NCBI GenBank assembly: GCA_040767195.1
Contig: JAXGPA010000001.1
Span: 416,001-480,000 of the forward strand
Direction of reading: 5' to 3'
Source of the DNA: Syntrophales bacterium
Lineage (GTDB): Bacteria > Desulfobacterota > Syntrophia > Syntrophales > UBA6807
Length of the DNA stretch: 64,000 bases
In this document: one piece after another, positions 254 through 53,482 of the stretch
How positions within the stretch are numbered: position 1 is the first letter of the stretch
Layout: every line of letters begins with the position of its first letter
Notes under the pieces: model-generated
What the model saw: only the letters and a program-made list of their open reading frames with translations
Told to the model about the DNA's origin: nothing
Database searches by the model: none
Program-made: the position numbers and the translations under genes

Positions 254-560
254 CATTCCGGCAGCGACGGTAAGAATAACGACGGCCCCTGAAAAACAAC
301 CCGACGGGCCGTCCCAAAGACGCTCTTTTAACACACCCCGTCGCCAGGTCAAAGCAAATAAGTCCGATGGGCCGGCCCGGTCCCGTTGCCCCATTCTCTT
401 TTTTCGCGGCGCCCGGACAGAACCCCGTGACCCCCTGCGGCGAAGCGCCAAAGCGGGACCCGGGGAATCCCCAGGAGCGTCCGAAAGGGGGTATTTTCAT
501 TGTGTATTGCGGCCGTTTCTGATATCCAGGGGAAACGATCACGGCACAGGAACGAGATTC

Positions 561-2489: not shown

Positions 2490-3249
2490 GGGAAATGTTT
2501 CCGTGGTGGAAAGAAAAATCCGTTTTTACAACGGGTCCAGGCTCATGGAACGATCCGTTTCCGTCATCCAGGAATCTTTTCTGAACGTTTTTCTGAACGA
2601 ACGGGCCATCGCCCGGATCGCCTGCCTGGGGGTTCACCCGGAAGAGCTGGCCGTGGGCTTCCTGCGCTCCGAGGGGCTCTTGAGGAGCCGGGAGGATCTC
2701 CGCGCCATCCGGGCCGCCAGGGGCGAGGTCCGGATCGAGGCCGCCGAAACGGAACGGGAGAAGGAGCAGGAACCGGCGACCCTTCTTTCCAGCGGTTCCC
2801 GGGAGAGAGGGACGGCCGTGCCGAAACCGATTCCCCCGGCCTCCCTCCCCTTTTCGCCGGCGGACATTCTCCGTCTCATGGAGGAACATCTCGAGTCCAC
2901 GGCGCTCCATGCCCAGACCCGAGGAACTCACGGCTCGTCCCTGGCTGACGAGAGGGGCCTTTTTCTTTCCCGCGAGGACGTGGGCAGGCACAACACCATC
3001 GACATGATCGGCGGGCATCTCCTTCTCCGGAAGATGGACGGCGCGGGAAAAATCCTCTTCACCACGGGCCGTCTCTCCTCCGAGATGGTCCGGAAAGTCT
3101 GGAACCTGGGGATCCCCCTTCTCGCCTCCCATGCCGCCGCCACATCCCAGGGGATCGAAATGGCCCGCCAGGGGGGGATCACGCTCATGGGCTGCGTCCG
3201 GAGCGGCACCATGAAAATATACACCCATCATGAAAGGATTTCCTATTGA
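2482..3249 (+). CDS. fdhD: Formate dehydrogenase accessory sulfurtransferase FdhD
   Basis: ELAVGFLRSEG, REDVGRHNTIDMIGG, TTGRLSSEMVRK motifs; overlaps selB stop. Confidence 0.9.
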   Translation: MDRGNVSVVERKIRFYNGSRLMERSVSVIQESFLNVFLNERAIARIACLGVHPEELAVGFLRSEGLLRSREDLRAIRAARGEVRIEAAETEREKEQEPATLLSSGSRERGTAVPKPIPPASLPFSPADILRLMEEHLESTALHAQTRGTHGSSLADERGLFLSREDVGRHNTIDMIGGHLLLRKMDGAGKILFTTGRLSSEMVRKVWNLGIPLLASHAAATSQGIEMARQGGITLMGCVRSGTMKIYTHHERISY

Positions 3250-16217: not shown

Positions 16218-16305
16218 TGAGAACCGATAAAGGCAAACTATCCGTAAGGGTAGGACGCAAAGCCATGGGTCCGTGAACGCGGATCGCCAGGCTGCCGAAG
16301 TTCTT
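16218..16305 (+). ncRNA. c-di-GMP-I (GEMM) riboswitch aptamer
   Basis: AAGGCAAAC-TATCC-GTAA-GGGTA-GGACGCAAAGCCATGGGTCC...GGATCGCCAGGCTGCCGAA matches the GEMM-I consensus (GNRA loop, GACGCAAAGC, CTGCCGA); P1 GAGAAC/GTTCTT. Confidence 0.9.
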
Positions 16306-16426
16306 TCGCCGATGACCGGAGAGCCTCGTTCCTTCCCCGGAAAATCAGGGGATCCCCTCTTTTCTTTCTTGCGAAAGTGCTGTATTTTCCTTCGTGAAAA
16401 TACACCCGTCGGAAAGGATGTGTGCC

Positions 16427-17191
16427 GTGACCTTCCTCTTTCCCGTTCTCGCCTTCGTCTTCGGCGCCGTCGTGGGAAGCTTTCTCAATGTGTGCATCCA
16501 CCGTCTCCCCCTGGGACAGTCCATCGTCCGCCCCCGCTCCCACTGCCCGGCCTGCCTAAAGAACATCGCCCCGTATGACAACATCCCCCTTGTCAGCTAT
16601 CTTCTCCTCCGGGGCCGATGCCGCCACTGCAAAACGGCCATCTCACCGGTCTATCCCGCCGTGGAACTGCTCACGGCGGTGCTCTCCCTCGTCCTCTTCC
16701 GGAAGTACGGCTTCTCCCTCCCCTGGCTGGCCTCCTTCACCTTTTCCGCCGCTCTCGTCGTGGTCACCTTCGTCGACCTGGAGCACCAGATCATCCCCGA
16801 CGTCATCTCCCTTCCCGGAATCCCCCTTTTCGCAGCGGCGGGCATGGGCATCATGGGTCTTTCCGTCTGGGATTCCCTGCTGGGCATCCTCCTGGGCGGC
16901 GGCGTTCTCTGGGCGGTCGCCGCCGGCTATGAATTTCTGAAGAAACAGGAGGGCATGGGCGGGGGAGACATCAAGCTCCTGGCCATGATCGGCGGTTTTC
17001 TCGGCTGGCAATCCCTCCTCTTCGTCATTCTCGCCAGTTCCCTCCTGGGGGCCGTGGTGGGGATTTCGGTCATCCTGTACAAGAAGGGGGATTTGAAATA
17101 CGCCATCCCTTTCGGTCCCTTTCTCTCCGCCGCCGCCGTTTTGTACCTCTTTTACGGGGAAGCCTTTATGCGGATCTTCATCTATCGCTGA
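16427..17191 (+). CDS. pilD: Prepilin peptidase/N-methyltransferase PilD (GspO)
   Basis: GSFLNVCIHRLP, SHCPAC..DNIP..GRCRHC, DLEHQIIPD, GMGGGDIKL, IPFGPFL. Confidence 0.96.
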   Translation: MTFLFPVLAFVFGAVVGSFLNVCIHRLPLGQSIVRPRSHCPACLKNIAPYDNIPLVSYLLLRGRCRHCKTAISPVYPAVELLTAVLSLVLFRKYGFSLPWLASFTFSAALVVVTFVDLEHQIIPDVISLPGIPLFAAAGMGIMGLSVWDSLLGILLGGGVLWAVAAGYEFLKKQEGMGGGDIKLLAMIGGFLGWQSLLFVILASSLLGAVVGISVILYKKGDLKYAIPFGPFLSAAAVLYLFYGEAFMRIFIYR

Positions 17192-39417: not shown

Positions 39418-40905
39418 TCACCGCCTCAGATCCACCCTCAGGTCGAAACCCACCCGGTTGTCTCGGTTCAGGCTCGCCGAGGCGATTGTCACCGTCCTGA
39501 AAAGTGGCGAGGGGTCCAGGGCGGCCTTGATCTGGTCGACGGCATTGAAGCGGTCCGTTTCACCTCGGATCTCCAGGGTTTCCCCGTCCCAGGACAGCGC
39601 CTTGATAATGAAAAAGGCGTCAGGGTCGACGAGGCGGCTGATCTCCCGGAGCAGAACGAGGATCGATTCCTCCCCCTCCCCTTTCCCCGGGAGGAGAGAC
39701 CGTTTCCCCGCCTCGTCGAGGGCCACTTTCATCTGCTGCAGGGGGTCGACGACGCGGCTCACCTGGGGGAGGGTCTCCCGAAAAATAAGGGAGACCTCGT
39801 TCTTCAGGGCCTGAAGGTGCCTGTTGTCCCGGGAATAGTCGAGATAAAAATCGACACCCCCGAGAAGGAGAAGGGAAAGAATCAGCAGGAGGGCCCGCAC
39901 CCCCTGTTTTCTCAGTTCTCGATGGGGTTTTCGGGGCGAAAATTCGTCCCGGGCGAAATTGACGCCCGCCGCCTTTCTGAAGTTCCGGGACGCCAGGGCC
40001 AGGGCCAGGTTCATCTCCGGCGGATCCCAGAAGGTTTTCACGGAATCGACCATGGGCATGGATTCCAGGAGGGCCAGATCCACGGGAGAGACCGGCATCT
40101 CGAGAACCCGGGCCAGCCTGTCCATCAGGCCCGGCGTTTTGGCCCCCGGACCACCGAACAGAACCCGGCCGGGCAGGGTGGGAATCTCCTCCCGCCACCG
40201 GAGGGACAGGCAGGTGTTACGGATCTGCCGGAACAGGGCCTCTTCCCTCTCGCTTCGATCTTCCCGTTCCACTCCGGGCAATTCTCCCGGCGGATCCCCC
40301 GAGCGGACCGCGTTCGCCGCGAGAAAAAAGGATCTCACGGAAATGATCCGCCCGTCCCGGCAGAGGAACGCCGTCCAGTCTGAATCGTGGGCATGGAGGT
40401 AGAGGATTGTTTCCCCCGTCTTTTCGAGGTCCGCGAGCCTGACCGCCAGGGGCAGGATCCCCCCGTCGATGATCGCCGCTTCCTTGCCGGCGGCCTTGAG
40501 GAGGGCGACCCGGGCCTCCACCCTTTCCCGCGGGACGGACACGCCAAGGAGATCCGTCGCGTCGGTCTCGCCGATGACCATGAAATCGTGGAGGCGCTCT
40601 CCCTCCCCGGGAGGAAGGAGATGCTCCATTTCCATGGGGAGCACACGGGCGATCTTCTTTCGGTCCCGGAAAGGAAGCCGCAACCGGTGAAAGGAGCAGT
40701 CCCGGGCGGAAACGGCGGTGATGAGGGTTCCTTCCCGCCACGCCCCTTCTTCCAGGAGTTTCGAAAGAGCGCCTTCGACATCGACGCCGTTGGAAACAGG
40801 CACGACTTGGCACCCCACGATCTCCGTACCCCGGAGTCCCGCTAAGACCCGGACGGCCCGGACGGCGTCTTCCCCTATGTCGAGCCCCACCCTTGATTCC
40901 GCCAT
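39418..40905 (-). CDS. gspL: Type II secretion protein GspL (PilM/PilN-like)
   Basis: VGLDIG actin-like N-terminus, VNFAR + TM, VDPLQQM, periplasmic domain. Confidence 0.85.
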   Translation of the reverse strand: MAESRVGLDIGEDAVRAVRVLAGLRGTEIVGCQVVPVSNGVDVEGALSKLLEEGAWREGTLITAVSARDCSFHRLRLPFRDRKKIARVLPMEMEHLLPPGEGERLHDFMVIGETDATDLLGVSVPRERVEARVALLKAAGKEAAIIDGGILPLAVRLADLEKTGETILYLHAHDSDWTAFLCRDGRIISVRSFFLAANAVRSGDPPGELPGVEREDRSEREEALFRQIRNTCLSLRWREEIPTLPGRVLFGGPGAKTPGLMDRLARVLEMPVSPVDLALLESMPMVDSVKTFWDPPEMNLALALASRNFRKAAGVNFARDEFSPRKPHRELRKQGVRALLLILSLLLLGGVDFYLDYSRDNRHLQALKNEVSLIFRETLPQVSRVVDPLQQMKVALDEAGKRSLLPGKGEGEESILVLLREISRLVDPDAFFIIKALSWDGETLEIRGETDRFNAVDQIKAALDPSPLFRTVTIASASLNRDNRVGFDLRVDLRR

Positions 40906-41873
40906 CAGGTTTCTCTCCAGTCGAGGGTCACCAGCCCCCCCCCCTCGCCCCGTCGAAGAACGGCGGCAACCTGTCTCGGGATGTGCCTGAAACGGCCTGA
41001 AGCGGTGACACGGAAAACGGACCCGGCCGTTTTCAGGACGGGGGGCAGGACGATACCGCTCATCCCAGGAACCTTCTCAACCCACCGCCCGTCGGCCAGG
41101 TCGTTGTCGGCGTTACGCCTGTATTCGTCGAGAGCCCTGGCCCGTTCTTCATCCATGTCTTCGGACAGGGCCATGAGAACGGCTAACGGGGCCGTGTTGA
41201 TATTGATTTTTCCGTCTCCGTAAACGGTCAGGCAGTCCCGCAAACCCGGCCTTCCTTCTGTCCCTTCGAAGAGTTCCTCCGTGACGCCCCGAACGAGCCG
41301 CAGTTCCTCCACCCGGTCCAGGGGGCCGTTCTTGCACTGGTGAGGCGTCTCCAGGGACCGGTAATAGGAATTTTCCGCCCCGAATCCCGTAACATCGTCA
41401 TCGGAGTCAATCCAGTCTTTCAGGGCATCCACGAGATCCCGGACGTCATTCTCCGCCAGCCGGAATTCCGGCAGAAGCAGGAGCCGCGACAGGATATCCC
41501 TGATTTCAGCCTGGTATTCATTTCCGGCCACAAGGTTGTTTACGGGGATCTTACCGGATTCATCCTCAATTTTCAAAAGAAAGGACCCTTCGGAAAAAAG
41601 AAGCGTCGACTGGGCGGAAAGGACCTCCGCCCGCGCCCAGGTTTCCAGGAATGAATCGACGGAGGCGTCGTCCTCCCCCAGAAGGGCTCTCCCGAGATGG
41701 ACACCCGATTTGGCGATGTAAAGAGCCCGGAAACCGTCAGCCAGGTTCGCCGCTTCATGGAGCTGGGCCCGGGAGGCCCGATTCAGGTCCAGCGTCATGG
41801 GGATGACAAGCCCGAGCACGAGAAGAACCAGAAGGACCGCAACACCTCTTGAGTTTCCCGTCTTGATTCTCAC
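40905..41873 (-). CDS. gspK: Minor pseudopilin GspK
   Basis: RG|VAVLLVL, DESGKIPVN, DWIDSDD, EELRLVRG, ININTA. Confidence 0.93.
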   Translation of the reverse strand: MRIKTGNSRGVAVLLVLLVLGLVIPMTLDLNRASRAQLHEAANLADGFRALYIAKSGVHLGRALLGEDDASVDSFLETWARAEVLSAQSTLLFSEGSFLLKIEDESGKIPVNNLVAGNEYQAEIRDILSRLLLLPEFRLAENDVRDLVDALKDWIDSDDDVTGFGAENSYYRSLETPHQCKNGPLDRVEELRLVRGVTEELFEGTEGRPGLRDCLTVYGDGKININTAPLAVLMALSEDMDEERARALDEYRRNADNDLADGRWVEKVPGMSGIVLPPVLKTAGSVFRVTASGRFRHIPRQVAAVLRRGEGGGLVTLDWRET

Positions 41874-41875
41874 GT

Positions 41876-42604
41876 TCAGGCCCCCAGGGGGATGAAGACG
41901 GCGGTCATGAACGGGAAGGGACGGTCCTGGTCTGTCCTGTTAACAAGCCAAAGTTCTACGGTGATCCGGTCGGGAACTTTGCCCGACATGGCCGCCTCCT
42001 GGGACAGGGAATCCCAGTCCTCGTATTCCGATCCTTCCCGGTAAAAGCGGAAAATCATGGACTTGACGGACTCGCAAAGAACAAACCCGCCTTTTTCCCC
42101 GTCCCGGGCGGTCACATCCAGGGAGGCCTCGTCCCGATAGGGAACCTCCTGCCGGACCAGGGCATATCCGGCATCATCCCCATCGCTCTCGGACTTTTCC
42201 CGCAGAAAATAGTCGATCCGGGAGAGGCCGGAGGCCGATTCCCTGAGGAAAGGAACGGTGGATCGCGAGAGAAAAGAGATGTCCCGGCCCGCTTCAGGAT
42301 ACTTTCCCTCCCGGGAGACAAGGAAAAAGGACCCTTCCGCCATTCCCAGGGAAGCGAGATCCGTGGCGAGGGTGTCCAGGGTGTCCCGGGCCATTCGATA
42401 GACCCGGTCCTCGGTAACGACGGCGTTCACGATTTTTTCCGTCCCGCCGAAAGCCCCGTAGACAAGGGCAGTGACGACGGCGAGGAGGGTGACGGCAAGA
42501 AGGATCTCCAAGAGAGTGAACCCGGCGGCGGAAGCGACCCGGCCCCGCCGGACGGGGTGGACGCCAGGGGAAAAGCGCGATTTTTTCATGTGCTGGCGCC
42601 TCAT
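41876..42604 (-). CDS. gspJ: Minor pseudopilin GspJ
   Basis: AG|FTLLEILLAV; position between gspI and gspK. Confidence 0.85.
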   Translation of the reverse strand: MRRQHMKKSRFSPGVHPVRRGRVASAAGFTLLEILLAVTLLAVVTALVYGAFGGTEKIVNAVVTEDRVYRMARDTLDTLATDLASLGMAEGSFFLVSREGKYPEAGRDISFLSRSTVPFLRESASGLSRIDYFLREKSESDGDDAGYALVRQEVPYRDEASLDVTARDGEKGGFVLCESVKSMIFRFYREGSEYEDWDSLSQEAAMSGKVPDRITVELWLVNRTDQDRPFPFMTAVFIPLGA

Positions 42605-42963
42605 GACCCCTCGTATCGATATAATTCCAGAAGGTAAGGAGCGAAGGCGCCTCCTTCCTTGCCCACCGTGACGGTCACTTTTTTGATTCCCGTTATTTCC
42701 GTCTGCTCAACGGTCGTCTCCCAGTAAAAGTCTTCGAAAGGAACCTCCCAGGATCCTGATTCCGGCGCACCCGCTTCTCCCTGGCCGGACTCGAGGCCCA
42801 CCATCTTTTCCCGGGCGAGGAAAGCCACATGGGTCAGGTACCGGGCCTCCTCGCCCATGGACACGCTCTGGGCCTGGTTCCGAAAGGCGGCGACCAGGAC
42901 CAGGGCAAGAATGGAAAGGGCGATCATGATCTCCAGGAACGTAAATCCCACCGGCCGATTCAT
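42601..42963 (-). CDS. gspI: Minor pseudopilin GspI
   Basis: G|FTFLEIMIAL; KVTVTV. Confidence 0.85.
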   Translation of the reverse strand: MNRPVGFTFLEIMIALSILALVLVAAFRNQAQSVSMGEEARYLTHVAFLAREKMVGLESGQGEAGAPESGSWEVPFEDFYWETTVEQTEITGIKKVTVTVGKEGGAFAPYLLELYRYEGS

Positions 42964-43847
42964 GGCATGATTTCGATACGGTATTTCTCTTTCAGCTTTT
43001 CAAAGGCTTTTTCGATACATTCTCTTTGTTTTTCCTGGATCATCATGGCCCTTATTCTCGGGGCGGCGGCGCTCAGTTCCTGTGTTTCTCCGGGCCGGCG
43101 ATCCTCGACCTGGATGATGTGAAAACCGTGGATGGTCCGGACGGGGTCGCTGGTCTCCCCCTTTTTCATGGAAAAGGCGGCATCGGAAAAGGGTTTTTCC
43201 ATCCTTTCGGGGGTAAAATATCCCAGGTCCCCTCCCTTGTACTTGGTAGCCGGGTCATCGGAAAAATCACGGGCCAGCTTCCAGAAGCTCTCTCCCGAGT
43301 CGACTTGTTTTCGGACCGTCTTCGCCTTCTCCAGGGCCTGGTTGACGGCGTCCTCTCCGGCGCCTTCAGGGACCTGGATCAGGATGTGGCGGGCCCGAAC
43401 CGCATCTCCCTTCCGGAACATCCCCTCATGGGTCTTATAAAAAGCTTCTATCTCCTCCGGCGGGGGATCGGGCGGGGTCGGGCAGACTTTCTGAAGATAC
43501 GCTTGGGACAGGATGCCTTTGGCGGCGTCGTCCAGCTTCTTTTTCACCTCTTCCGCCTCGTCCATTTTCTCGTCCCGGGCGGCCAGGGAGAAGGCCTCCA
43601 TCTGAACAATCCGCTCCATGAAAGATTTGCGATGAACCGGATTCTGAAGTATGTTTCTATATTCCACGGGAAGCCCCTGGATCTGGGCATCCAGGTCCTT
43701 TTCCGTGAACACTTTGTCCCCGATTCTGGCCAGGACGGCAGTTTCCTTCGTCTCCGGCGATTCAGCCGGTCCCGCGGCAAGGGCCGCCGAAGCGGCGATG
43801 AAAATCACTAAAACAAAAAACAGGTCCTTTCTGATGATGAATGTCAT
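42960..43847 (-). CDS. Exported parvulin-type peptidyl-prolyl isomerase (PrsA/PpiC-like)
   Basis: Signal peptide; VRARHILI, FWKLARDFSDD, GGDLGYF, GFHIIQV. Confidence 0.92.
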   Translation of the reverse strand: MTFIIRKDLFFVLVIFIAASAALAAGPAESPETKETAVLARIGDKVFTEKDLDAQIQGLPVEYRNILQNPVHRKSFMERIVQMEAFSLAARDEKMDEAEEVKKKLDDAAKGILSQAYLQKVCPTPPDPPPEEIEAFYKTHEGMFRKGDAVRARHILIQVPEGAGEDAVNQALEKAKTVRKQVDSGESFWKLARDFSDDPATKYKGGDLGYFTPERMEKPFSDAAFSMKKGETSDPVRTIHGFHIIQVEDRRPGETQELSAAAPRIRAMMIQEKQRECIEKAFEKLKEKYRIEIMP

Positions 43848-43859
43848 TCCGATCTCCTT

Positions 43860-44390
43860 TCAGGAAAAGTTTCCCGAGCCCGTTTCGACTTCCGATTCTT
43901 CATAAGACACATAGCGCTCAAAAACGCGCAAATTTCCTAAAAACGGTTCCAGGACCAGGGACAGGTCCCGATCTTTTTCCTGGAGGTGAAAAACGGACGG
44001 GACAGCCGTCCCGTCCTTGAAGAAGAGAACTTCCGCCTCTCCTTCGATGATTTTCCCGCCGCCACGGAATTCCAGGTCCCGGACCGTCACGCCGTGAGGC
44101 AGAGGCCAGGCCTTTTTCCAGGCTCTTTCCCGGGCTTCCGGGGAGTCTTCTTTCCGGTAAACGGCCACCTTGCCCTCATTCAGGTTCAAAGACAGGACCT
44201 GGTCGGCATACTCCCGGACGGCCTGGTACCGGAGTTCCCGGGACAGACCGGCCATGTGCCGCCGCGCTTCGCCGAGGCCGTCACCGGAGAGCCACCCCTG
44301 AAAGGCTGGAAAAGCCACGAAAAAGGCCAGCCCCACGATCCAGACGACGATAACGAGTTCCAGGAGCGTGAACCCTTTTTCAGTCCACAT
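43860..44390 (-). CDS. gspH: Minor pseudopilin GspH
   Basis: KG|FTLLELVIVV; FFKDG; start at ATG 44390 overlapping the gspG end. Confidence 0.83.
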   Translation of the reverse strand: MWTEKGFTLLELVIVVWIVGLAFFVAFPAFQGWLSGDGLGEARRHMAGLSRELRYQAVREYADQVLSLNLNEGKVAVYRKEDSPEARERAWKKAWPLPHGVTVRDLEFRGGGKIIEGEAEVLFFKDGTAVPSVFHLQEKDRDLSLVLEPFLGNLRVFERYVSYEESEVETGSGNFS

Positions 44391-44820
44391 CGTGATTGGT
44401 GATGTCCCTGTTCTTTCCTTCTCCACCTGGTTCCCCGTCGGCGCCATAGGAAATGAGGTCGTATTCTTCCTCGATACCGGGGCAGAGGTACACGTATTCA
44501 TTGCCCCATGGGTCTTTGGGGATTCTTCCCTTGTCCAGATAGCCCCCCTGGCGCCAGTTTCTCGGAAGGTCCCCCACGGAAGGCGGTTCCACGAGGGCTT
44601 GGAGCCCCTGTTCCGTGGACGGGTAATCCCCGTTGTCGAGCCGGTAAAGTTTCAGCGCCGTGTCGAGACTTTCCAGCTGGATCCGGGCCTTCGCCTGCCG
44701 GGCCTCCTCCGGGCGCCCCATGATCCGGGGAACGATGAGCCCGGCCAGAATTCCGAGAATGACGACCACCACCATGAGTTCTATGAGGGTGAAACCCCCG
44801 CTCTTTCGAATCGATGCCAT
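44380..44820 (-). CDS. gspG: Major pseudopilin GspG
   Basis: GG|FTLIELMVVVVILGILA, YPSTEQGLQAL, PKDPWGNEYVY, SYGADG. Confidence 0.97.
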   Translation of the reverse strand: MASIRKSGGFTLIELMVVVVILGILAGLIVPRIMGRPEEARQAKARIQLESLDTALKLYRLDNGDYPSTEQGLQALVEPPSVGDLPRNWRQGGYLDKGRIPKDPWGNEYVYLCPGIEEEYDLISYGADGEPGGEGKNRDITNHDVD

Positions 44821-44901
44821 GCCTTTCCTCACCTCGTTTCCCTCCGTGTCTTCACCTGCCGAGTCCCGTCTCCACGGGCCGGCGGTCACGGACGGGACAT
44901 T

Positions 44902-46128
44902 TTAACGGATTAACTGGTTCATTTCAAATATGGGCAATAAAATCGAAACGACGATAAACGCCACCAGGAGGCCCATGACGAGGATCATCACCGGCTCGAG
45001 AAGAGACGTCAGGACCACGAGCCTCGACGCGGCTTCGTCCTCGTAGCTCCGGGAAACCTTGAGGAGCATGTTTTCCAGGGCCCCGCTCTGTTCCCCTACG
45101 GAAATCATCTGGATAACGAAGGGAGGGAAGAGGTCGCTTCCCGACAGGGTGTCCGCCAGGGTCCGGCCCTCGGCCAACTCGGTACCCGCCCTCTCGATCA
45201 ACGACGCCATGGGACGGTTGTGAACCACCCGTCTCGATATTTCCAGGGCCGTCAGAAGGGGCACGCCGCTCTGAAGGAGTGTCCCCAGGGTATGGGCGAA
45301 CCGGGCCAGGAGGACCTTGTGAAAGACCGTCCCCGCCAGGGGTACTTTCAATTTCAGGCGGTCCATGAAAAAGGCCCATTTTTCCGATCTTCGAACACCG
45401 AGGCGAAGGGCGATGTAAACAAAGGCCGCGACAAGAGCCATGGCCCACCAGTAAGAGCGGACTGTTTCGGAAACACCGAGGAGAATCTCCGTGATGAGGG
45501 GAAGATCCTGGTTCACCTCTTCGAAGATGCTTGTAATTTTCGGTATGATGACCGTCGTGAGAAAAAAGAGGACCAGCGCTCCCACGAAAAACATGAAAAA
45601 CGGATAGGCGAGAGAGGCCGTTATTTTTCCCCGGAGGGCCTGCTGCATCTCCGTGTAGTCGGCCACCCGTTCGAGGACGAGGTGAAGGGTCCCCGACGTT
45701 TCACCGGCCCTCACCATGTTGACGTAGAAGGGGGAGAAGACACGGGGGTAGCCGGCCAGGCTGCCGGCAAAACTCTCCCCTTCATTGATCTGCTCCCGGA
45801 GCTCCGCGAGGATCTTCTTCAGCCTCGGGTTGGCCGTCTGGTCGAGGAGGGAAGACAAAGCCGGGACCAGGGGAAGCCCCGCTCCCAGGAGCGTGGCCAG
45901 CTCCCGGGTCATGGCGGAAACGTCCCGGTGACTGGCGCCCCTTAACCGGAAGCGGCCCAAAAAAACCTTTCCCCCGGGGGCTTCTTTTTCCGTCGTTTCC
46001 TTGATCTCAACGGGATAGTGCCCCCTTTCCCGAAGCTTTCCCTTTACCGCGGCCAGGCTTTCCGCGTCGAGGATCCCTTTTCGCTTCCGGCCCTTACCGT
46101 CGAAAGCCTCGTACTCAAAAACAGGCAT
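44902..46128 (-). CDS. gspF: Type II secretion platform protein GspF
   Basis: MPVFEYEA, RELATLLGAGLPL, AGETSGTL, LAYP, GEQSGAL, LLEPVMI. Confidence 0.95.
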   Translation of the reverse strand: MPVFEYEAFDGKGRKRKGILDAESLAAVKGKLRERGHYPVEIKETTEKEAPGGKVFLGRFRLRGASHRDVSAMTRELATLLGAGLPLVPALSSLLDQTANPRLKKILAELREQINEGESFAGSLAGYPRVFSPFYVNMVRAGETSGTLHLVLERVADYTEMQQALRGKITASLAYPFFMFFVGALVLFFLTTVIIPKITSIFEEVNQDLPLITEILLGVSETVRSYWWAMALVAAFVYIALRLGVRRSEKWAFFMDRLKLKVPLAGTVFHKVLLARFAHTLGTLLQSGVPLLTALEISRRVVHNRPMASLIERAGTELAEGRTLADTLSGSDLFPPFVIQMISVGEQSGALENMLLKVSRSYEDEAASRLVVLTSLLEPVMILVMGLLVAFIVVSILLPIFEMNQLIR

Positions 46129-46536
46129 AAAAAAAGGGGACAGATTTATTTTTTTTATCTATTGATATTTGGATATTCATTCGTTACAAGGGTTTCATGC
46201 CAAGAACATGACGGATTATCATCGCCAACTACCCTCATCATATAATACAGCGCGGCCACAACAGGCAAGCCGTTTTCACCTCCGAAGGCGATTTCCTGTA
46301 TTATCTCGCCACGCTTCAGGAATGGAAAGATATTTATGATTGCAGGATTTATGCCTACTGCCTGATGGCAAATCACGTTCACCTTGTCATCGAGCCCGGA
46401 GAAAATGAACGTGATCTTTCTTGACTCATGAAACGAGTCGCCGGTCGTCAGACACGATACGTGAACAGGCGACACAACCGATCGGGGACCCTGTGGGAAG
46501 GTCGCTTCAAATTTTCCCTTTTTTGTCCCTTTTTTT
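46129..46536 (+). mobile_element. Decayed RAYT/Y1-transposase element with A7-G3/4-ACA inverted ends
   Basis: AAAAAAAGGGGACA (46129-46142) and TGTCCCTTTTTTT (46524-46536) are inverted; AT-rich interior encodes a transposase remnant. Confidence 0.7.
46197..46515 (+). pseudogene. REP-associated tyrosine transposase (Y1_Tnp) pseudogene
   Basis: MPRT*RIIIANYPHHIIQRGHNRQAVF...AYCLMANHVHLVI...DLS*LMKRVAGRQTRYVNRRHNRSGTLWEGRFK; stops at 46209 and 46422; C-terminus missing. Confidence 0.88.
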
Positions 46537-46537
46537 C

Positions 46538-47194
46538 TCAGCGGCTTATGGTGACGCCGACGCGGTCGCATGACGCTGCCACGGGGCAACGGCTGCACAG
46601 GGGGGAGACGGGTTTGCAGATTTTTTTGCCGAAAGCCACGAGGAGGGTGTTGTAGGCGGACCACTCGTCCCGGGGCAGTTTCTTTCTCAAGGCCCGTTCC
46701 GTTTCATCCGGGGTTTTCGTTGAGACGTACCCAAACCGGTTGGAAATGCGGTGAACATGCGTGTCCACGCAGATGCCCGGCTTTCCGAAGGCCATGGTAA
46801 TGACGAGATTGGCCGTCTTTCTCCCCACGCCTTTCAGTGCCAGGAGTTCCTCCAGGGTCCGGGGAACCCGGCCCCCGTGTTTTTTCAGGAGTTCGCGACT
46901 CACGTGGAGGACCGTCTTCGCCTTGGTCCGGTAGAACCCGACGGGAAAGATGATATGGGCGATCCGCTCTTCCGGGAGCGCGACCATTTCCGCCGGGGTG
47001 GCGGCCAGGGCGAAAAGCCGGTCCGCCGCCGCCCCCGTCACCTCGTCCTTGGTCCGAAGGCTGAGAAGAGTGGACACCAGGATCCGGTAAGGATCCCGGT
47101 CCGTCTTCACCATGTCCGCCACGAGAGGGAGGTCTTCCTCACCCAGTTCTTCTCTTAGGGTGGCCAGAACGGAAACGAGCGTTTCCGTTTTCAA
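46538..47194 (-). CDS. nth: Endonuclease III
   Basis: LLSLRTKD, LKGVGRKTAN, VDTHVHR, CKPVSPLCSRCPVAASC. Confidence 0.95.
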   Translation of the reverse strand: MKTETLVSVLATLREELGEEDLPLVADMVKTDRDPYRILVSTLLSLRTKDEVTGAAADRLFALAATPAEMVALPEERIAHIIFPVGFYRTKAKTVLHVSRELLKKHGGRVPRTLEELLALKGVGRKTANLVITMAFGKPGICVDTHVHRISNRFGYVSTKTPDETERALRKKLPRDEWSAYNTLLVAFGKKICKPVSPLCSRCPVAASCDRVGVTISR

Positions 47195-47196
47195 CG

Positions 47197-48045
47197 CTAT
47201 TCGTATCCTTCCTCGTTAGCCAGGATATCCAGGTGGATGGTGGCGAAATCCTCCACGTCCAGGCAGGCGGCCCGGTCCATCTTCCGGAAATCGACGGTCT
47301 TGATGTACCGGTTACAGTTGTTGCACACATCCACCCGGTACTGTTCCTCGCCCTCGACGGTGAAATAGGCCAGGGAGTCCTGATCGTCGTTCCCGCAGAA
47401 GGGACAGCGGATTCGGTTGAAAGACCACTCGTAACCGCACTGGTTGCAGAAGAGAAAGCGCCTTCCTTCTTCCTCGCGAATTTCAGCGATCTTGGGCTCC
47501 CGCCCGCATATGGGGCAAAACCCCTCGTTCCAGGGTGTCTTCTTCAGAAGGGGGGCGTAGATTTCCGCCACTCTTTCCAGGGAAGGCCGGAGGCTTTCCT
47601 CGATAAAGAGGCTGAGGAGATCGAACACATCCCCGCTCTCTTCATCATCCTCGTCTTTGTCACCGGCCGTTTCGTCACCGGCTTCGGAAAAGGACTCCCG
47701 GACGACTTTCTCGTAGGAGAGCGCCCCCGTTTCCAGCTCCTCGAGGATGCGATCCACCTCTTCCGGTGACTTCTTCCGGCCGATTTCCAGGAGATCCCGG
47801 AAATACGCTTCCGGTTCCTCCAGGTGTAGAACGCCGCCGGAGAAATCGACAAGGGGAAAGCCGCCGCCGATTTTCCGTTCCGCTATCTTTTCCTCCATGG
47901 AAACCAGGGAGGCCCCGGACAGTCGTCGCTTTTCTTCCCGAAGAATAAGGATGTCCTGAAGGATGTCGAGGAGTTCCCCGTAATGGGGCTGTTCGCTTTT
48001 GTAATGCTCTATGGTTTTCAGTGATTGTTTCAATATGGCTGCCAT
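47197..48045 (-). CDS. fdhE: Formate dehydrogenase accessory protein FdhE
   Basis: CPICG, CNQC..W..RIRCPFCG, CNNCNRYIK, LDILA. Confidence 0.93.
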   Translation of the reverse strand: MAAILKQSLKTIEHYKSEQPHYGELLDILQDILILREEKRRLSGASLVSMEEKIAERKIGGGFPLVDFSGGVLHLEEPEAYFRDLLEIGRKKSPEEVDRILEELETGALSYEKVVRESFSEAGDETAGDKDEDDEESGDVFDLLSLFIEESLRPSLERVAEIYAPLLKKTPWNEGFCPICGREPKIAEIREEEGRRFLFCNQCGYEWSFNRIRCPFCGNDDQDSLAYFTVEGEEQYRVDVCNNCNRYIKTVDFRKMDRAACLDVEDFATIHLDILANEEGYE

Positions 48046-48126
48046 GAAAAAGTCGACCTCTTTTTTATTGACCCCAAACCGGGATCCGAATCTCGTCATA
48101 AATCATTCCGGTCCATTCGGCAAGGT

Positions 48127-48186: not shown

Positions 48187-48855
48187 TCAGTGAGAAGGGG
48201 CTGTCTTCTCTTCTCCGTATACTTCGAGCTTTCCTTCCTCTTCCATCTCACGGAGCCACTTGGGGCACTGCTTCTCGCACCAGGCCCGGGTCACGTACCC
48301 CGTCACGATGGCCGGGAACGAACCGGGAACACCGATCGTCCCAAGGTACAGGTGAATGAAAAAGAACGGAAACAAAACAACGAAACCCAGGGCATGGAGG
48401 AAATACATGAGCCGAACCGTGCCCACCGAAAAGGACAGGGGAAACCACATGATGAGACCGCTCACCACCATGACGATACCGAACCCCGCCACGGCCAGAA
48501 AAAACGCCTTCTGACCGGGATTGTACTTCCCCGTCTCCGGGGGATGCTCCACGTGCCACAAATACCCGCCGGCGCACTTGATCCACTCCAGATCATCGGG
48601 AAAATCGAAAATCGCCGCCTCGCGCCACCAGATGAGTATCCCGAAAAAAAGCGCCGGGGCGAAAACCAGGCCCGAAAAATTGTGGATCAGCTTCAGGTTC
48701 TTCAAACCCCCAACGGGTATCGCCAGAAAATTCAGGGAATGGAACATCATCCCCAAACCCGAAACAGCCAGGATCAGAAAGGAGCCGGCAAGGCACCAGT
48801 GGACGATCCTCTCGAAACCATCAGATACTTTGATCATTCCTTTTTTCGGTATCAT
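48187..48855 (-). CDS. fdnI: Formate dehydrogenase gamma subunit (cytochrome b)
   Basis: ERIVHW, IHNFSG, GKYNPGQK, LHAL..IHLY heme-ligating His. Confidence 0.93.
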   Translation of the reverse strand: MIPKKGMIKVSDGFERIVHWCLAGSFLILAVSGLGMMFHSLNFLAIPVGGLKNLKLIHNFSGLVFAPALFFGILIWWREAAIFDFPDDLEWIKCAGGYLWHVEHPPETGKYNPGQKAFFLAVAGFGIVMVVSGLIMWFPLSFSVGTVRLMYFLHALGFVVLFPFFFIHLYLGTIGVPGSFPAIVTGYVTRAWCEKQCPKWLREMEEEGKLEVYGEEKTAPSH

Positions 48856-48856
48856 C

Positions 48857-49645
48857 TTACTCACCTCCTCCCTGGCCGGCTTCTCCGCCGCTCGTGTCCT
48901 TCGGCCCGTGCAGAATGTAGTGCAGGAACGACCCGACCAGGACACCGCCCGTCGCCAGGAGGCTCAGAGGCTTCAACCAGTCCTTCCAGGCGACGACCGT
49001 CAGGGGAACTTTCGGCTTCTCGGGAAGCTTGGCGTACACGGAAGCCTTTTCGGGCAGTATGTAAACGAAGTGGGTTCCTCCCACGAACTTGTCCCCGTAG
49101 ACACTGGCATCGCCGCCCAGTTCCTTCGCCCGTGCCGCGGCCACCTGGAGCATCTTCTTCTTTTCTCCGAAAAGGAGTGCGCCCGTGGGGCAGGCCTTGA
49201 CACAGGCCGGGATCATGTTGTTCTCGATCCGGGACAGGCACATGTCGCACTTGGCCACCTTGTCCGTCGCCGGGTCGTACTTGGGCACCTCGAAGGGACA
49301 GGCGAAGATGCACTCCTTGCACCCGATGCACTTGTCCCGGTCGAGGCCGACCGTTCCGTATTTCGTGTAGTAAAGGGCGCCGCTGGGACAGACGGTGACG
49401 CAGCCCGCGTCGGTGCAGTGCATGCAGGCTTCGTTCCGGAAAAACCACTTGACGCCGTTTCCGTTTGACGTTTCCTGGAACCGCATGAGCATCCAGGTGT
49501 TGGGCTGAAGTTCCGGCGGGTTCTGGTAGGTACCGGTGTTTTCCGTCTGTTTCGCGGGGAGCTGATTCCACTGCTTGCAGGCAAGCTGGCATCCCCGACA
49601 GCCGGTGCATTTCGAACCATCATAGAGTTTAACGTATTCCGCCAT
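48857..49645 (-). CDS. fdnH: Formate dehydrogenase beta (4x[4Fe-4S]) subunit
   Basis: CTGCRGCQLAC, CMHCTDAGCVTVCP, CIGCKECIFACP, KCDMC..PACVKACP; C-terminal TM. Confidence 0.95.
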   Translation of the reverse strand: MAEYVKLYDGSKCTGCRGCQLACKQWNQLPAKQTENTGTYQNPPELQPNTWMLMRFQETSNGNGVKWFFRNEACMHCTDAGCVTVCPSGALYYTKYGTVGLDRDKCIGCKECIFACPFEVPKYDPATDKVAKCDMCLSRIENNMIPACVKACPTGALLFGEKKKMLQVAAARAKELGGDASVYGDKFVGGTHFVYILPEKASVYAKLPEKPKVPLTVVAWKDWLKPLSLLATGGVLVGSFLHYILHGPKDTSGGEAGQGGGE

Positions 49646-49646
49646 G

Positions 49647-52600
49647 TTACTTCACCCCCTTCTTCTCGACATTCACCATGAACGCCTTGCTCTCCGGGAT
49701 CATGGTGTTCGGGTCCCCGATAAACGGGGTCAGGAGATTGGCCGCGTCGCCAAAAGTGTAGACTTCGGGTTTCTTGTCTTCATGGGCGTATTTCCGCATG
49801 GCCGTTGTTATCCATCCGTAATGCCACGGAATACCGACCTGGTGAATGATCTGCCCGCCGATGTTGAACGGCTTGAAACGGGCCGTCACGATGGTCACCG
49901 CCTCGACTTCGCCTCTGGCCGATCTGACCGTGACCACTTCCCCGTTTTTCAACCCCTTCAACTTGGCCAGCTCCTCGCTCATTTCGACGAACATGGAGGG
50001 CTGCATCTCCGCCAGCCAGGGGCACCAGCGGGTCATGAGGCCCGTCTGCCAGTGTTCGCTCACCCGGTAGGTGGAGCAGACGAAGGGGAACCGGGGATCG
50101 CAGGTCGCCCTGAGATCGAGTTCCGACCCTTCTTCGTCCCATCGCTTGATGGTCGGGTTGATGAACTGCGGTGAAAGCAGGTTCTTGTCGATGGGGCATT
50201 CCAGGGGCTCGTAGTGTTCCGGGAACGGACCGTCTGCCAGACCTGGCCCGAAGATGCTCCCCACGCCGTCGGGTTTCATGATGAAGGGCGGACGTCCCGC
50301 ACCGGGGGCCGCTACGCCGTCGGGAACGTCGCCGACCCACTTGGAGCCGTCCCAGACGATGACGGGATGTTCCTTGTCCCAGGGCTCCCCCGTCTCGGGA
50401 TCAACGGACGCCCCGTTGTAGATGATCCGCCGGTTGACAGGCCAGCACCAGGCCCACTCGGGATAGAGGCCGATGGGCGAGTGGTCCTCGCTGTTTCTCC
50501 GGGCGGCCATGTTGCCCTTTTCGGTGTATGAATTGCAGTAGAGCCAGTTCCCCGAAGATGTCGTCCCGTCGTCCTGGAGGAAGGCGAAGCTGGGAACCAG
50601 GGTCCCCTTCTTGTACAGGACACCGTTGATTTCCTTGTCTTCGAGAAAATAGCCGTTGATGGCCTTGGCGATGGCATGGCTGTCGAGATGCCGGATTTTC
50701 CCGTCAGGCCCCATGGGACCGTAATTCCAGGTGAGTTTCGTGATCGCCTCTTTCAGCGGGCCGCCTTCCTTCTCGTAAAGCTCCTTGACCTTGAAGAAGA
50801 GCTCGCTGATGAGTTCCCCGTCGGGCAGGGCCTCTCCGGGGGGATCGACGGCCTTGTACCGCCACTGCATCCAGCGGCCGCTGTTGGTGATGCTCCCTTC
50901 CTTCTCGATGGAAGCGGCGCAGGGCAGCATGAAGACTTCCGTCTTTATCTTCGCCGGGTCCATGCCGGGACCTTTCCAGAAGGAGCCCGTCTCGTTATCG
51001 AAAATGTTGACGTTCACCATCCAGTCCAGCTTGGCCATGGCCTGTCGCGTCTTGTTGGAACTGGCGCCGCTGCAGGCGGGGTTCTGACCCCAGGCGAAAA
51101 AGCCGGTGAATTCGGACTTGTACATGGCGTCGAAAAGACTGAGCCAGGAATAGTTCTTGCCGTCGTCGAGCTTGGGCAGATAGACGTAGGCCTCCTCGGG
51201 GGTGGCGTTCATACCGTAGAATTCCCTGAGAAGGCTCGTGATGTACTTGGGATAATTTTTCCACCAGTTGAGGCTCTTGGGCTCCGACGTCGTCGGCGGA
51301 ACCTTCTCGATGTATTCCTTCAGGGTGGGGATCGACGCCGTCGGGTTCTTGAGGTAACCGGGCAGAATGTGGAAGAGAAGGCACTGGTCCGTCGACCCCT
51401 GGACGTTGGACTCGCCCCGGAGCGCGTTCACGCCGCCGCCGGCGACGCCCATGTTGGCCAGAAGCATCTGGATGATGGACATGGTCCGGATGTTCTGGAC
51501 GCCCACCGTGTGCTGGGTCCAGCCCATGGCGTACATGATGGTCCCCGCCTTGCCTTTTTCTCCCGTTTTGGCATAGGCCTTGTAGACCTCCACCAGTTTG
51601 TCCTTGGGAGTCCCCGTAATCTCGGAAACGATCTCCAGGCTGTACCGGTCGTAGTGCTTCTTCAGAAGCTGGAACACGCAGTTGGGGTCCTGGAGGGACA
51701 TGTCCTTGACGATGACGCCGTCGGCTCCCTTCTGGAAAGCCCAGGTGGACTTGTTGTATTTCGTCCCCTCGAGACCGGAGAAGACCCCGTCATTTTCCCC
51801 GGGAAGCTTGAAATCGGGACCCACGAGGAAAGGGGCGTTGGTGTAGTACTTGACATATTTTTCGTTGTAAAGATTGTTTTCGATGATGTACTTGATCATG
51901 CCGCCGAGGAAGGCGATGTCCGTCCCCGACCTGAGGGGGGCATACATGTGGGCCCTCGCGGAGGTCTGGGTGAACCGGGGATCGACACTGATCAGGGTCG
52001 CCCCCTTGTCCATGGCCTTCTGGACGTACTTGAAGGATATGGGATGGTTGGAAGCGGGATTGCTTCCCATGGCCAGGATACAGTCACTGAACTGAATGTC
52101 GATCCAGTGATTCGTCATCGCGCCGCGTCCGAACGACTCTGCCAGAGCCGCAACCGTGGCGCTGTGTCATATCCGGGCCTGATGCTCGATGTAGACAAGG
52201 CCAAGGGACCGGAGAAACTTCTGGTAGATGAAGCACTCCTCGTTGTCCATGGCGGCGCTGCCCACGGAGGCGATACCGTTGGTCCTATTCACCGTCTGGC
52301 CCTTGGCGTTCGTCTCCGTGAAGCTCTTGTCCCGGCTCGCCTTGATCCGCTTGGCGATCTCGTCGAGAGCCCACTCCATGGACACTTCCTGCCAATCGGT
52401 GGCATAAGGCGCCCGGTAGAGCGGCTTATCGAGCCTGTTCTTGTTGTTCGCGGAAATCTGATAGATGGACCCGCCCTTGCTGCACAGGGAGCCCCGGTTG
52501 ATGGGGTGGTCGGGATCCCCTTCCGTGTTGACGACCTTCCCGCCCCGCGCGGACACGATGATCCCGCATCCCACGGAACAATAGGGGCAGATCGTGGTGG

Positions 52601-52727
52601 TTTCCCTGGCGTACTGGATCTTGAGCGGCTGCGCGTGGGCCGCCACGGGCTTCAGGTTGATTCCGAGCCCACCCGACACCAGTGCAGCGCTCGAGACTTT
52701 GAGGAAACCTCTCCTCGTTACCTCCAT
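49647..52727 (-). CDS. fdnG: Selenocysteine-containing formate dehydrogenase alpha subunit (Tat-exported), 1026 aa with UGA readthrough
   Basis: TRRGFLK Tat motif, CPYCSVGC, in-frame TGA at 52167-52169 in EHQARI-U-HSATVAALAESFGRGAMTNHW, continuous with the 823-aa ORF; LRGESNVQG. Confidence 0.96.
52141..52166 (-). promoter_or_regulatory. Putative bacterial SECIS element 3' of the fdnG UGA
   Basis: UGA-CACAGC-GCCACGGUUGCGGCUCUGGC: GCCA/UGGC stem with a GU-rich apical part immediately downstream of the UGA. Confidence 0.65.
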
Positions 52728-52765
52728 ATCGATGCGCTCCTTTCTCTGGATTTGAGACCCTTATG

Positions 52766-52869
52766 GCTATCTCCTTTCCAAGCACGGGAGGCGCAACCGT
52801 TTCCGGCGGCACCCAATGTCCATCCCTCATGAAGCGGAAGCTCTTTAGAGAAGATGGATCGGAGAGGGC
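52766..52869 (-). ncRNA. Moco RNA motif riboswitch (P3-less, tungsten-cofactor-type variant)
   Basis: Minus strand TCTCCGA-[TCCATC..CTAAA..GATGGA]-CATT-GGGTG-CCGCCGGAAACGGTTG-CGCCT-CCCGTGCTTGGAAAGGAGA matches the Moco motif core (GGAAAC loop, GCCTCCCGT..TGGAAAGGAG). Confidence 0.85.
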
Positions 52870-52941
52870 ATCCTTGTGAATTTTTAATTACATGCAAAGA
52901 ACGGAAAAATTAAAGACGCAGGTGACCCTTTGAAGCATTTA

Positions 52942-52970
52942 CTCATAGCGGTTCCGTGTTTTTCTGTCAA
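52942..52970 (-). promoter_or_regulatory. Putative sigma70 promoter of the fdn operon
   Basis: Minus strand TTGACA-17 nt-TATGAG upstream of the riboswitch. Confidence 0.55.
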
Positions 52971-53008
52971 GACTTTTTTCCCGATGACCGACTTTCCGGG
53001 GAGGCGGT

Positions 53009-53482
53009 TCACGGGGCCGTCCAGGCGGCTCCAAACACCCGGGACAGCGCCTCTTCCTCCGGTAACCCTCTGTCCCGCTCGGCCCAGTAGGCCTCAATCC
53101 GGTCGATGAGAACCAGGGCCTGCAGGGGGGTCATTTTTTCAAGCTTTTCCGACAGGAAGGGCACGTCGATCCCCTGGTCCCGGCCCAGTTTTTCGTATTT
53201 CTCCACATCCTCCAGGTCCCAGGCGAGAAAGGACGGCCATCGGTCGAACCGGTTCGGGTCGTACCGGGCGTTCCGAAGGGCGTCGCAAAGGAGAACCGTT
53301 TCGTCGGGGGAGAAAAGCCCCGCCAGGGACGGCCACACCCACCGGAGCGCAGCTTCGTAACGGGCGAGGTCCCGCAGCAACAGGGCCTGCTGCTTCCGTT
53401 CCTCTCCCCCACCTTCCATTCGCCTTCGCGCCCCCTCCTCCAGGGAAACAATCCCGGAACGGTCCTCTTTTTTTGCACCCAT
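53009..53482 (-). CDS. Hypothetical all-helical protein
   Basis: 157-aa ORF with a good SD (GAGGAGGA); no named family recognised. Confidence 0.7.
   Translation of the reverse strand: MGAKKEDRSGIVSLEEGARRRMEGGGEERKQQALLLRDLARYEAALRWVWPSLAGLFSPDETVLLCDALRNARYDPNRFDRWPSFLAWDLEDVEKYEKLGRDQGIDVPFLSEKLEKMTPLQALVLIDRIEAYWAERDRGLPEEEALSRVFGAAWTAP

Follow-up and report, generated by a model that had tools for sequence, protein, structure and literature searches.

The fdn operon and its leader

The window, which is the whole 64,000-nucleotide stretch of Syntrophales DNA analyzed here, carries on its minus strand an operon for a formate dehydrogenase preceded by a riboswitch aptamer. The first gene, fdnG (49647..52727, −), encodes a selenocysteine (Sec) formate dehydrogenase alpha subunit of 1026 amino acids (TIGR01553) with a twin-arginine leader, and its frame reads through one TGA at codon 187. 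It is followed by fdnH for the iron-sulfur beta subunit (48857..49645, −; TIGR01582, 260.6 bits, below the cut-off of 334.7), fdnI for the cytochrome b gamma subunit (48187..48945, −; TIGR01583, 152.9 bits against a cut-off of 115.85), and a gene for an fdhE-like maturation protein (47197..48099, −; partial match to TIGR01562, E 5e-18). The coordinates of fdnI are those of the longest open reading frame, and the real start is probably downstream of that of the frame. The TGA codon and this gene order bear out the first-pass annotation of the DNA, which had placed the aptamer ahead of a Sec formate dehydrogenase.

In the genome, selB and selA were found over cut-off, selA on another contig, and the genome search found neither selD nor tRNA-Sec over cut-off. 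Elsewhere in the window, selB followed by fdhD is located at 507-3249 (+), and an endonuclease III gene with a type II secretion cluster (gspF, G, I, K, L, and PPIase) is located at 39418-47194 (−), downstream of fdhE on the same strand. Three FdnG homologues of the order (G102:C9:147095, and G092:C37 at 8032 and 2674), two of which carry the riboswitch, have open frames of more than 1030 codons and therefore apparently no in-frame TGA (Cys forms).

A putative sigma70-type promoter was read from the sequence at 52942..52970 (−), with TTGACA at 52970-52965 and TATGAG at 52947-52942 separated by 17 nt, from which transcription would start near 52936. A comparable TTGACA-17-TA spacing was seen by eye upstream of several relatives. 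A consensus promoter scan gave nothing at threshold, the TTGACA/TATGAG candidate scoring below it. Contigs from four RNA-library runs span all or part of the leader, one of them reaching the upstream gene and two ending in the aptamer (52829 and 52853); they were left unused because they give no start, strand, or level. An imperfect palindrome, TGTAA-N8-TCACA, lies at 52875-52892 (−) in the A/T-rich 5' UTR directly before the aptamer, and may be a protein site or a chance occurrence.

A P3-less aptamer of the RF01055 family

The Rfam model RF01055 matched the fdnG leader at 52875..52759 (−) over model positions 1-135 with 63.3 bits (E 7e-13), against a gathering cut-off of 36 bits. This match is far above chance, and it is the only one in the genome-wide scan. 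The element is a Moco/Tuco RNA aptamer lacking P3: the P3 columns are deleted in the alignment, and P2 passes to P4 through C-AUU. The P1 5' strand UCUCC is located at 52865-52861 (−), P4 carries a GAAA tetraloop, and a receptor-like P2 bulge (UCUAAAG/CAUGA) aligns with CCUAAG/UAUGG of the model; a tetraloop-receptor contact is predicted. A P3-less Moco-motif core with these P1, P2, and P4 elements had been recognized in the first-pass annotation, and the covariance-model search proposed there as a check returned the match given above.

Alignment of 16 leaders with RNAalifold recovered P1, P2, P4, and a P5-like stem, the register of P5 being slightly off that of Rfam. Double-sided changes were observed in 12 of 32 pairs, with P2 and P4 covarying, and P1 was nearly invariant. 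As RF01055 members do, the aptamer sits ahead of genes using the Mo/W cofactor, here fdnGHI-fdhE.

The RF01055 model had matches in 53 of the 151 Syntrophales genomes scanned. Of 62 loci examined, 44 were parsed as fdnG leaders and the other 18 were dropped; two more were without an anchor, leaving 42 anchored leaders. A search pattern consisting of the aptamer end and the fdnG start, of which the Shine-Dalgarno sequence (SD) was not part, was present in 71 of 339 Syntrophales genomes and in 114 metagenome stretches, and is kept in at least 12 families. The resulting 190 loci gave 119 distinct leaders (10 loci failed anchoring while this set was built), and L299, L380, and L021 (no AGGAG, mis-anchored, or atypical P1) were excluded from the tests, which used 116 leaders. 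The P2-P4 junction is 2-3 nt long in 115 of the 119 leaders, the other four not being parsed by the rule, so that every parsed fdnG-led aptamer has a short junction.

Other RF01055 matches in the order (L004, L024, L025, L027, L030, and L057) lead genes other than fdnG, which by eye from their translations include aldehyde-dehydrogenase-like, TonB-receptor-like, AOR-type Fe-S subunit, TupA-like, and porin-like genes; in L057, a terminator arm matches the L5 loop. Eroded remnants of the aptamer were seen by eye before the fdnG orthologues L177, L200, L202, L209, and L214, pointing to repeated loss of the riboswitch.

An aptamer in decay or weak use, which folds but barely alters translation, would agree with the many close orthologues that have no RF01055 hit, some of them with such remnants, and with the presence of the aptamer-plus-start pattern in 71 of 339 genomes versus fdnG-type genes in 117 of 151. 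The complementarity to the SD described below would then be a by-product of two SD-like sequences and shared ancestry. We consider this explanation rather unlikely: where the aptamer is present, its core is nearly invariant, its P2 and P4 covary, and it has been kept in no fewer than 12 families.

Two SD-like sequences and their predicted pairing

The sequence GAAAGGAG occurs twice in the leader. Copy 1 (52771..52778, −) forms the junction and the P1 3' strand in the RF01055 alignment, at the position that the consulted part of PMC2408646 gives to the ribosome-binding site (RBS) in E. coli-type members, and has its end 43 nt upstream of the fdnG ATG. Copy 2 (52737..52744, −) lies 9 nt before this ATG at 52727 and is the fdnG SD: the 16S 3' tail of the genome reads CACCUCCUUUCU, of which GAAAGGAG is the complement, and at this position AGGAG is conserved in 118 and GAAAGGAG in 111 of the 119 leaders. 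The earlier assignment of the downstream copy, not that of the aptamer, as the fdnG SD is thus confirmed by the distances to the ATG. An E. coli-type OFF platform, in which the gene uses the GGAG of the P1 3' strand as its RBS, was not found in the fdnG leader.

The duplication had been taken as a possible switch signal, which did not hold. GAAAGGAG is an ordinary SD sequence, as 63 of its 267 genomic occurrences stand ahead of an ATG with an open frame of 100 codons or more (ranking second of 70 permutations, with a median of 13.5). The FdnG homologues of the order form two groups, a close clade and a distant clade. Among the 54 close orthologues that gave no riboswitch hit, 45 still have GAAAGGAG, indicating that copy 2 is the ancestral SD; in the distant clade, GAAAGGAG is present in 0 of 24, and the SD is AGGAGG in 22 of 24. 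L224 and L226 were left out of the riboswitch-less set, and 20 of its 54 members were rescanned with Rfam and gave no hits, the remaining ones resting on a stricter earlier scan. Judged from the alignment, copy 1 is the conserved SD-like P1 strand of the RF01055 family. The duplication was therefore rejected as proof of a switch and is no evidence by itself. Moreover, any pair of this aptamer and a GGAG SD biases folds toward ON, an ON-like result being obtained with 37% of null chimeras carrying a GGAG SD behind the aptamer, so that evidence for a selected switch must come from the flanks.

From the observed aptamer, SD, operon, and complementarities, and from their distribution among relatives, we infer folds, a direction of switching, a ligand, and an enzyme metal as follows. 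The P3-less Moco-family aptamer would be a translational ON switch of fdnGHI-fdhE, a reading to which we assign a probability of about 0.58. Without ligand, aptamer strands bearing CUCC would pair with the fdnG SD region; in this OFF fold, copy 1 would be captured by the spacer (52758-52746), and the SD, together with the bases that follow, would be paired by the P1 5' strand (52872-52861) or by the 3' strand of P4 (52799-52787). The cofactor, likely in its tungsten form, would on binding lock the CUCC strands in the aptamer and leave the RBS free.

Two anti-SD candidates are predicted in the fdnG leader, namely the P1 5' strand with its outer flank (52861..52872, −; duplex −12.8 kcal/mol), which shows covariation in relatives, and the P4 3' strand with the P5 5' strand (52787..52799, −; duplex −14.0 kcal/mol). 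The bases of the SD-to-start spacer (52728..52736, −) lengthen both anti-SD helices in the folding and duplex predictions. A further spacer strand at 52746..52758 (−) is predicted to capture copy 1 (GUCUC on GAGAU and UCCAG on CUUGGA), which would free the anti-SD strands. The capture of copy 1 amounts to 9.0 kcal/mol, compared with 4.1 kcal/mol for 60 shuffles (p 0.02), and that of the SD to 2.3 kcal/mol, compared with 3.0 kcal/mol for shuffles (p 0.6). The single anti-SD strand proposed earlier, the CUCC of P1, is thus retained but incomplete, the P4 3' strand being predicted to be an equal or stronger anti-SD; this second anti-SD, the copy-1-capturing strand, and the upstream open reading frame (uORF) start in 23 of 119 leaders described below are additions of the present analysis.

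When folded from 52880, the leader had the swap as its minimum-energy structure, with CUCC on the GGAG of the SD, GAUGC on GCAUC, and the spacer holding copy 1. Opening of the SD cost 6.1 kcal/mol in the free leader and 3.0 kcal/mol with the aptamer enforced, and 4.4 and 2.7 kcal/mol, respectively, with 12 more coding bases. When the fold began at the putative start, 52936, this difference was nil or reversed (4.2 vs 4.1 and 3.7 vs 4.9 kcal/mol). Hence, the pairing of the P1 5' CUCC with either copy, as proposed in the first-pass annotation, holds as the minimum-energy fold from 52880, whereas its effect is gone from 52936, and the predicted direction of switching is not robust but depends on the 5' boundary. 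The fdnG leader alone was not significant, with an SD-flank percentile of 0.14 against shuffles and −0.8 kcal/mol in the genus-level ensemble comparison, and the folding of the whole leader was not unusually stable (z −1.24).

Among the 116 leaders, the P1 5' strand paired with its own SD region better than with swapped ones, with p values of 0.005, 0.026, and 0.029 for 42, 30, and 21 clusters, respectively, which overstate the signal because the clusters are kin. These average-linkage clusters were run after single linkage, which merged 67 of the 116 leaders and gave p values of 0.16 and 0.087. The second base outside CUCC was Watson-Crick to the second base after the GGAG of the SD in 0.76 of the cluster weight (z 3.0-4.5), compared with 0.38-0.43 for copy 1 as the control. 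In a 40-leader tree, the pair was C-G in 17, U-A in 8, G-C in 2, U-G in 5, and unpaired in 8, and the C-G, U-A, and G-C forms stood on separate branches. A tree-independent test of this covariation was dropped, since its contrasts number only 4-5 and are not able to reach significance.

When the best of three aptamer strands was compared with swapped SD partners, a statistic picked after inspection of the data, the p values were 0 of 3000, 0.001, and 0.019; the P4 3' strand alone gave 0.05-0.34 across clusters. Lineages with weak P1 pairing often use the P4 3' strand or the L5 loop to pair with the SD. In the congener G001, the P4 3' strand reached −18.5 kcal/mol and the P1 candidate only −4.6 kcal/mol, and in L020 the P4 3' strand paired with the SD at −15.4 kcal/mol. 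Two candidates were rejected as general features: the L5 loop as an anti-SD (−13.3 kcal/mol in one family, p 0.04-0.15 overall) and the capture of copy 1 by the spacer (p of 0.1 or less in only 5 of 30 clusters).

The pairing of aptamer strands was weakened in 25 of 30 clusters when the bases after the SD were shuffled. Over shuffles, the gain averaged −2.0 kcal/mol for cognate and −0.95 kcal/mol for non-cognate pairs, −0.41 kcal/mol in 44 riboswitch-less orthologues, and +0.17 kcal/mol in 60 unrelated genes. The SD-flank complementarity fades where the aptamer has been lost, and this fall in excess complementarity also argues against the decay of the aptamer considered above. With the aptamer enforced, the SD became cheaper to open in 19 of 30 clusters and costlier in 1-2, with an ensemble mean of −2.0/−1.7 compared with −0.7/−0.5 for the nulls. 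In the 42-leader set, 25 leaders were ON-like and none OFF-like, and ON-like leaders were observed in 13 of 19 genera (p 0.015) and OFF-like ones in 1 of 19. Two results count against ON: approximately one third of the clusters showed no predicted switch, which is also in line with decay, and no more than 21 of 42 leaders had copy 2 ahead of copy 1. The ON switch proposed in the first-pass annotation is partly supported by the complementarity of the relatives' SD flanks above controls and by the swap fold, while its direction in the fdnG leader depends on the 5' boundary.

In 23 of the 119 leaders (among them L019, L023, L044, L047, L055, L265, L274, and L320), an ATG is located exactly 6 nt after copy 1. 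The uORFs starting there span 3-78 codons and run toward or over the fdnG SD, several ending 0-7 nt from the fdnG start; by eye, an outer extension of P1 would pair with the uORF AUG. At this position, the fdnG leader (52762..52764, −) and four others have ATA, and the sister leaders L378 and L379 have ATG and ATA, respectively, suggesting that ATA is likely a relic uORF start. The state of the uORF start changes three times on a 104-row tree. Such a uORF could occlude the fdnG SD (ON) or be coupled to fdnG (OFF). A riboswitch acting through a coupled uORF has been reported (PMC11260477, in part), as has an absence of occlusion with a 39-nt uORF (PMC13285730, in part).

It is mainly for the uORF, with both occlusion and coupling reported in the consulted parts of PMC13285730 and PMC11260477, that an OFF switch is kept as a rival. 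Here the ligand would sequester copy 1 in P1, and the freed spacer would cover the SD; in the uORF lineages, the uORF SD and AUG would be hidden too, so that coupled translation of fdnG stops, and the ligand could be the cofactor that FdnG does not use. With the full 5' UTR, the aptamer fold indeed leaves the SD no more accessible, or even less so; in G001, capture of the SD by the spacer amounts to 5.2 kcal/mol, compared with 1.5 kcal/mol for shuffles; and the uORF layout resembles translational coupling (cf. the same two sources). However, OFF-like leaders were predicted in only 0 of 42 leaders, 1 of 19 genera, and 1-2 of 30 clusters, the fdnG SD, a strong match over 8 nt, is capable of initiating on its own, and the fdnG leader has ATA, not ATG, and a spacer that prefers copy 1. 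In addition, a selected complementarity between the aptamer strands and the SD flank would have no role in an OFF switch, which we regard as unlikely.

Control could also be exerted on the mRNA by Rho-dependent termination or decay, or could need a protein, with the SD pairing being secondary. Untranslated leaders invite Rho. Termination has been reported at the E. coli Moco riboswitch (preprint 10.1101/2024.10.15.618519, in part), and a protein sensor is allowed for in the Conclusions of PMC2408646. Against this, no terminator-like site was found in 52600-53100, which leaves the fdnG leader with neither an intrinsic terminator nor a terminator-based platform, the spacer is only 16-47 nt long in the 42 anchored leaders, and the comparative signal centers on the SD flank. 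Control of this kind therefore seems improbable.

Ligand, enzyme metal, and known systems

WtpA was found over cut-off in the genome and WtpB is also present, TupA (377.8 bits) and TupB (282.3 bits) were just under their cut-offs of 400 and 320, and modABC is carried as well, so that importers for both metals are present. Five AOR-family genes were also found. The P3-lacking Tuco subclass comprises 58 of 176 RF01055 members in the consulted part of PMC2408646, and the fdnG leader resembles it in the absence of P3 and in a host with tungsten metabolism genes, namely tungstate transporters and AOR-family genes. The first-pass annotation had referred to a proposal that P3-less RNAs sense the tungsten cofactor; the proposal is indeed made in PMC2408646, as a correlation, not a binding result, and ligand binding for the Moco family is not shown in the sections consulted. 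The same sections report that deletion of P3 in the Moco RNA of E. coli abolished regulation. A review, in the part consulted, states the identity of P3-less and Tuco RNAs as fact, citing that paper (PMC10265488). On balance, we favor the tungsten form as the cofactor sensed.

A second Sec fdnGHI (G000:C8:153694-161918, L097), 53% identical and without RF01055, lies beside fdhE and modABC. It is a candidate Mo isoenzyme, and the arrangement fits a W/Mo pair. The best PDB matches of FdnG were Sec formate dehydrogenase alpha subunits (1304-1326 bits), compared with 948 bits for the nitrate-inducible FdnG 1KQF; we take 6SDR to be DvFdhAB, 1H0H to be the W enzyme from D. gigas, and 1KQF to be the Mo enzyme from E. 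coli. The riboswitch-less paralogue scored nearly as high against the same solved enzymes (1228-1240 bits), so this likeness does not fix the metal. By eye, 6 genomes have modA no more than 2 kb from the riboswitch-less clade, and approximately 9 have it 3.5-7 kb from the riboswitch clade. Neither PDB likeness nor the modA neighborhood was decisive as a metal call, since both paralogues are alike and modA is near either clade; the W dependence of FdnG cannot be read from sequence. In the second FdnG clade (L227-L250), palindromes were seen by eye upstream of the −35 (TATGTTA-N9-TAACATA) and around the −10 (TATGYCA..TGRCATA), and these are likely regulator sites.

Both the aptamer class and its occurrence ahead of Fdn operons are already known (Regulski 2008, PMC2408646, in part): its supplement places a Moco RNA of Syntrophomonas wolfei before an operon of Formate-Dh-Na, HybA, FdnI, and FdhE. 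The E. coli moaA leader (same paper, in part) shares with the fdnG leader the RF01055 family, P1, P2, P4, and P5, the GAAA on P4, and the SD-like P1 3' strand. There, this strand is the RBS of the gene, and binding is accordingly read as OFF; in contrast, the fdnG SD is a separate copy 26 nt downstream, P3 is absent, and the predicted output is ON. In the literature covered, in part, a single Moco RNA has been tested, and it is an OFF switch acting on biosynthesis (PMC2408646). The terms "ON switch" and "formate dehydrogenase" are absent from the main text of that paper and Syntrophus from its supplement, and its sections consulted describe no platform that sequesters the SD of an enzyme gene. 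The mostly open-access literature searched, in part, gave neither an ON-type Moco/Tuco switch nor a platform like that of the fdnG leader.

Terminator-wired Moco RNAs of the same phylum (L057, L064, L066, L074, and L075) are similar in that an aptamer strand complements a downstream control element, but by eye it is the L5 loop that matches the 3' arm of the terminator hairpin, and these switches are transcriptional and presumably OFF. Mycobacterium tuberculosis ppe2/metE (PMC11260477, in part) has a riboswitch-controlled upstream RBS and short ORF, as in the 23 leaders with a uORF start, but it is of the B12 class and shown to be OFF, and the fdnG leader has ATA at the uORF start. The W-FdhAB of Desulfovibrio vulgaris (PMC9774666, in part) resembles FdnG as a Sec formate dehydrogenase alpha subunit, to which the fdn operon adds a cytochrome b subunit.

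More tentatively, Syntrophales may have turned an OFF-type cofactor riboswitch into a W-cofactor ON switch. The aptamer would have stayed unchanged, its own RBS would have become a decoy (a uORF in some lineages), the true SD would have moved downstream, and the anti-SD would be taken from P1, P4, or L5 depending on the lineage. The cell would then choose between two periplasmic formate dehydrogenases by sensing finished W cofactor at translation. A leader that naturally lacks P3, comes in 119 sequence variants, has defined anti-SD strands, and responds with a gain of signal would open Mo-versus-W specificity to direct testing by reporter, and is also relevant to the way in which syntrophs share out limited W and Se for formate transfer in methanogenic communities.

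A second riboswitch, of the c-di-GMP-I-GGC class (RF03167, 72.3 bits), is located in the window at 16223-16300 (+), approximately 90 nt before a prepilin peptidase gene (16394-17191).
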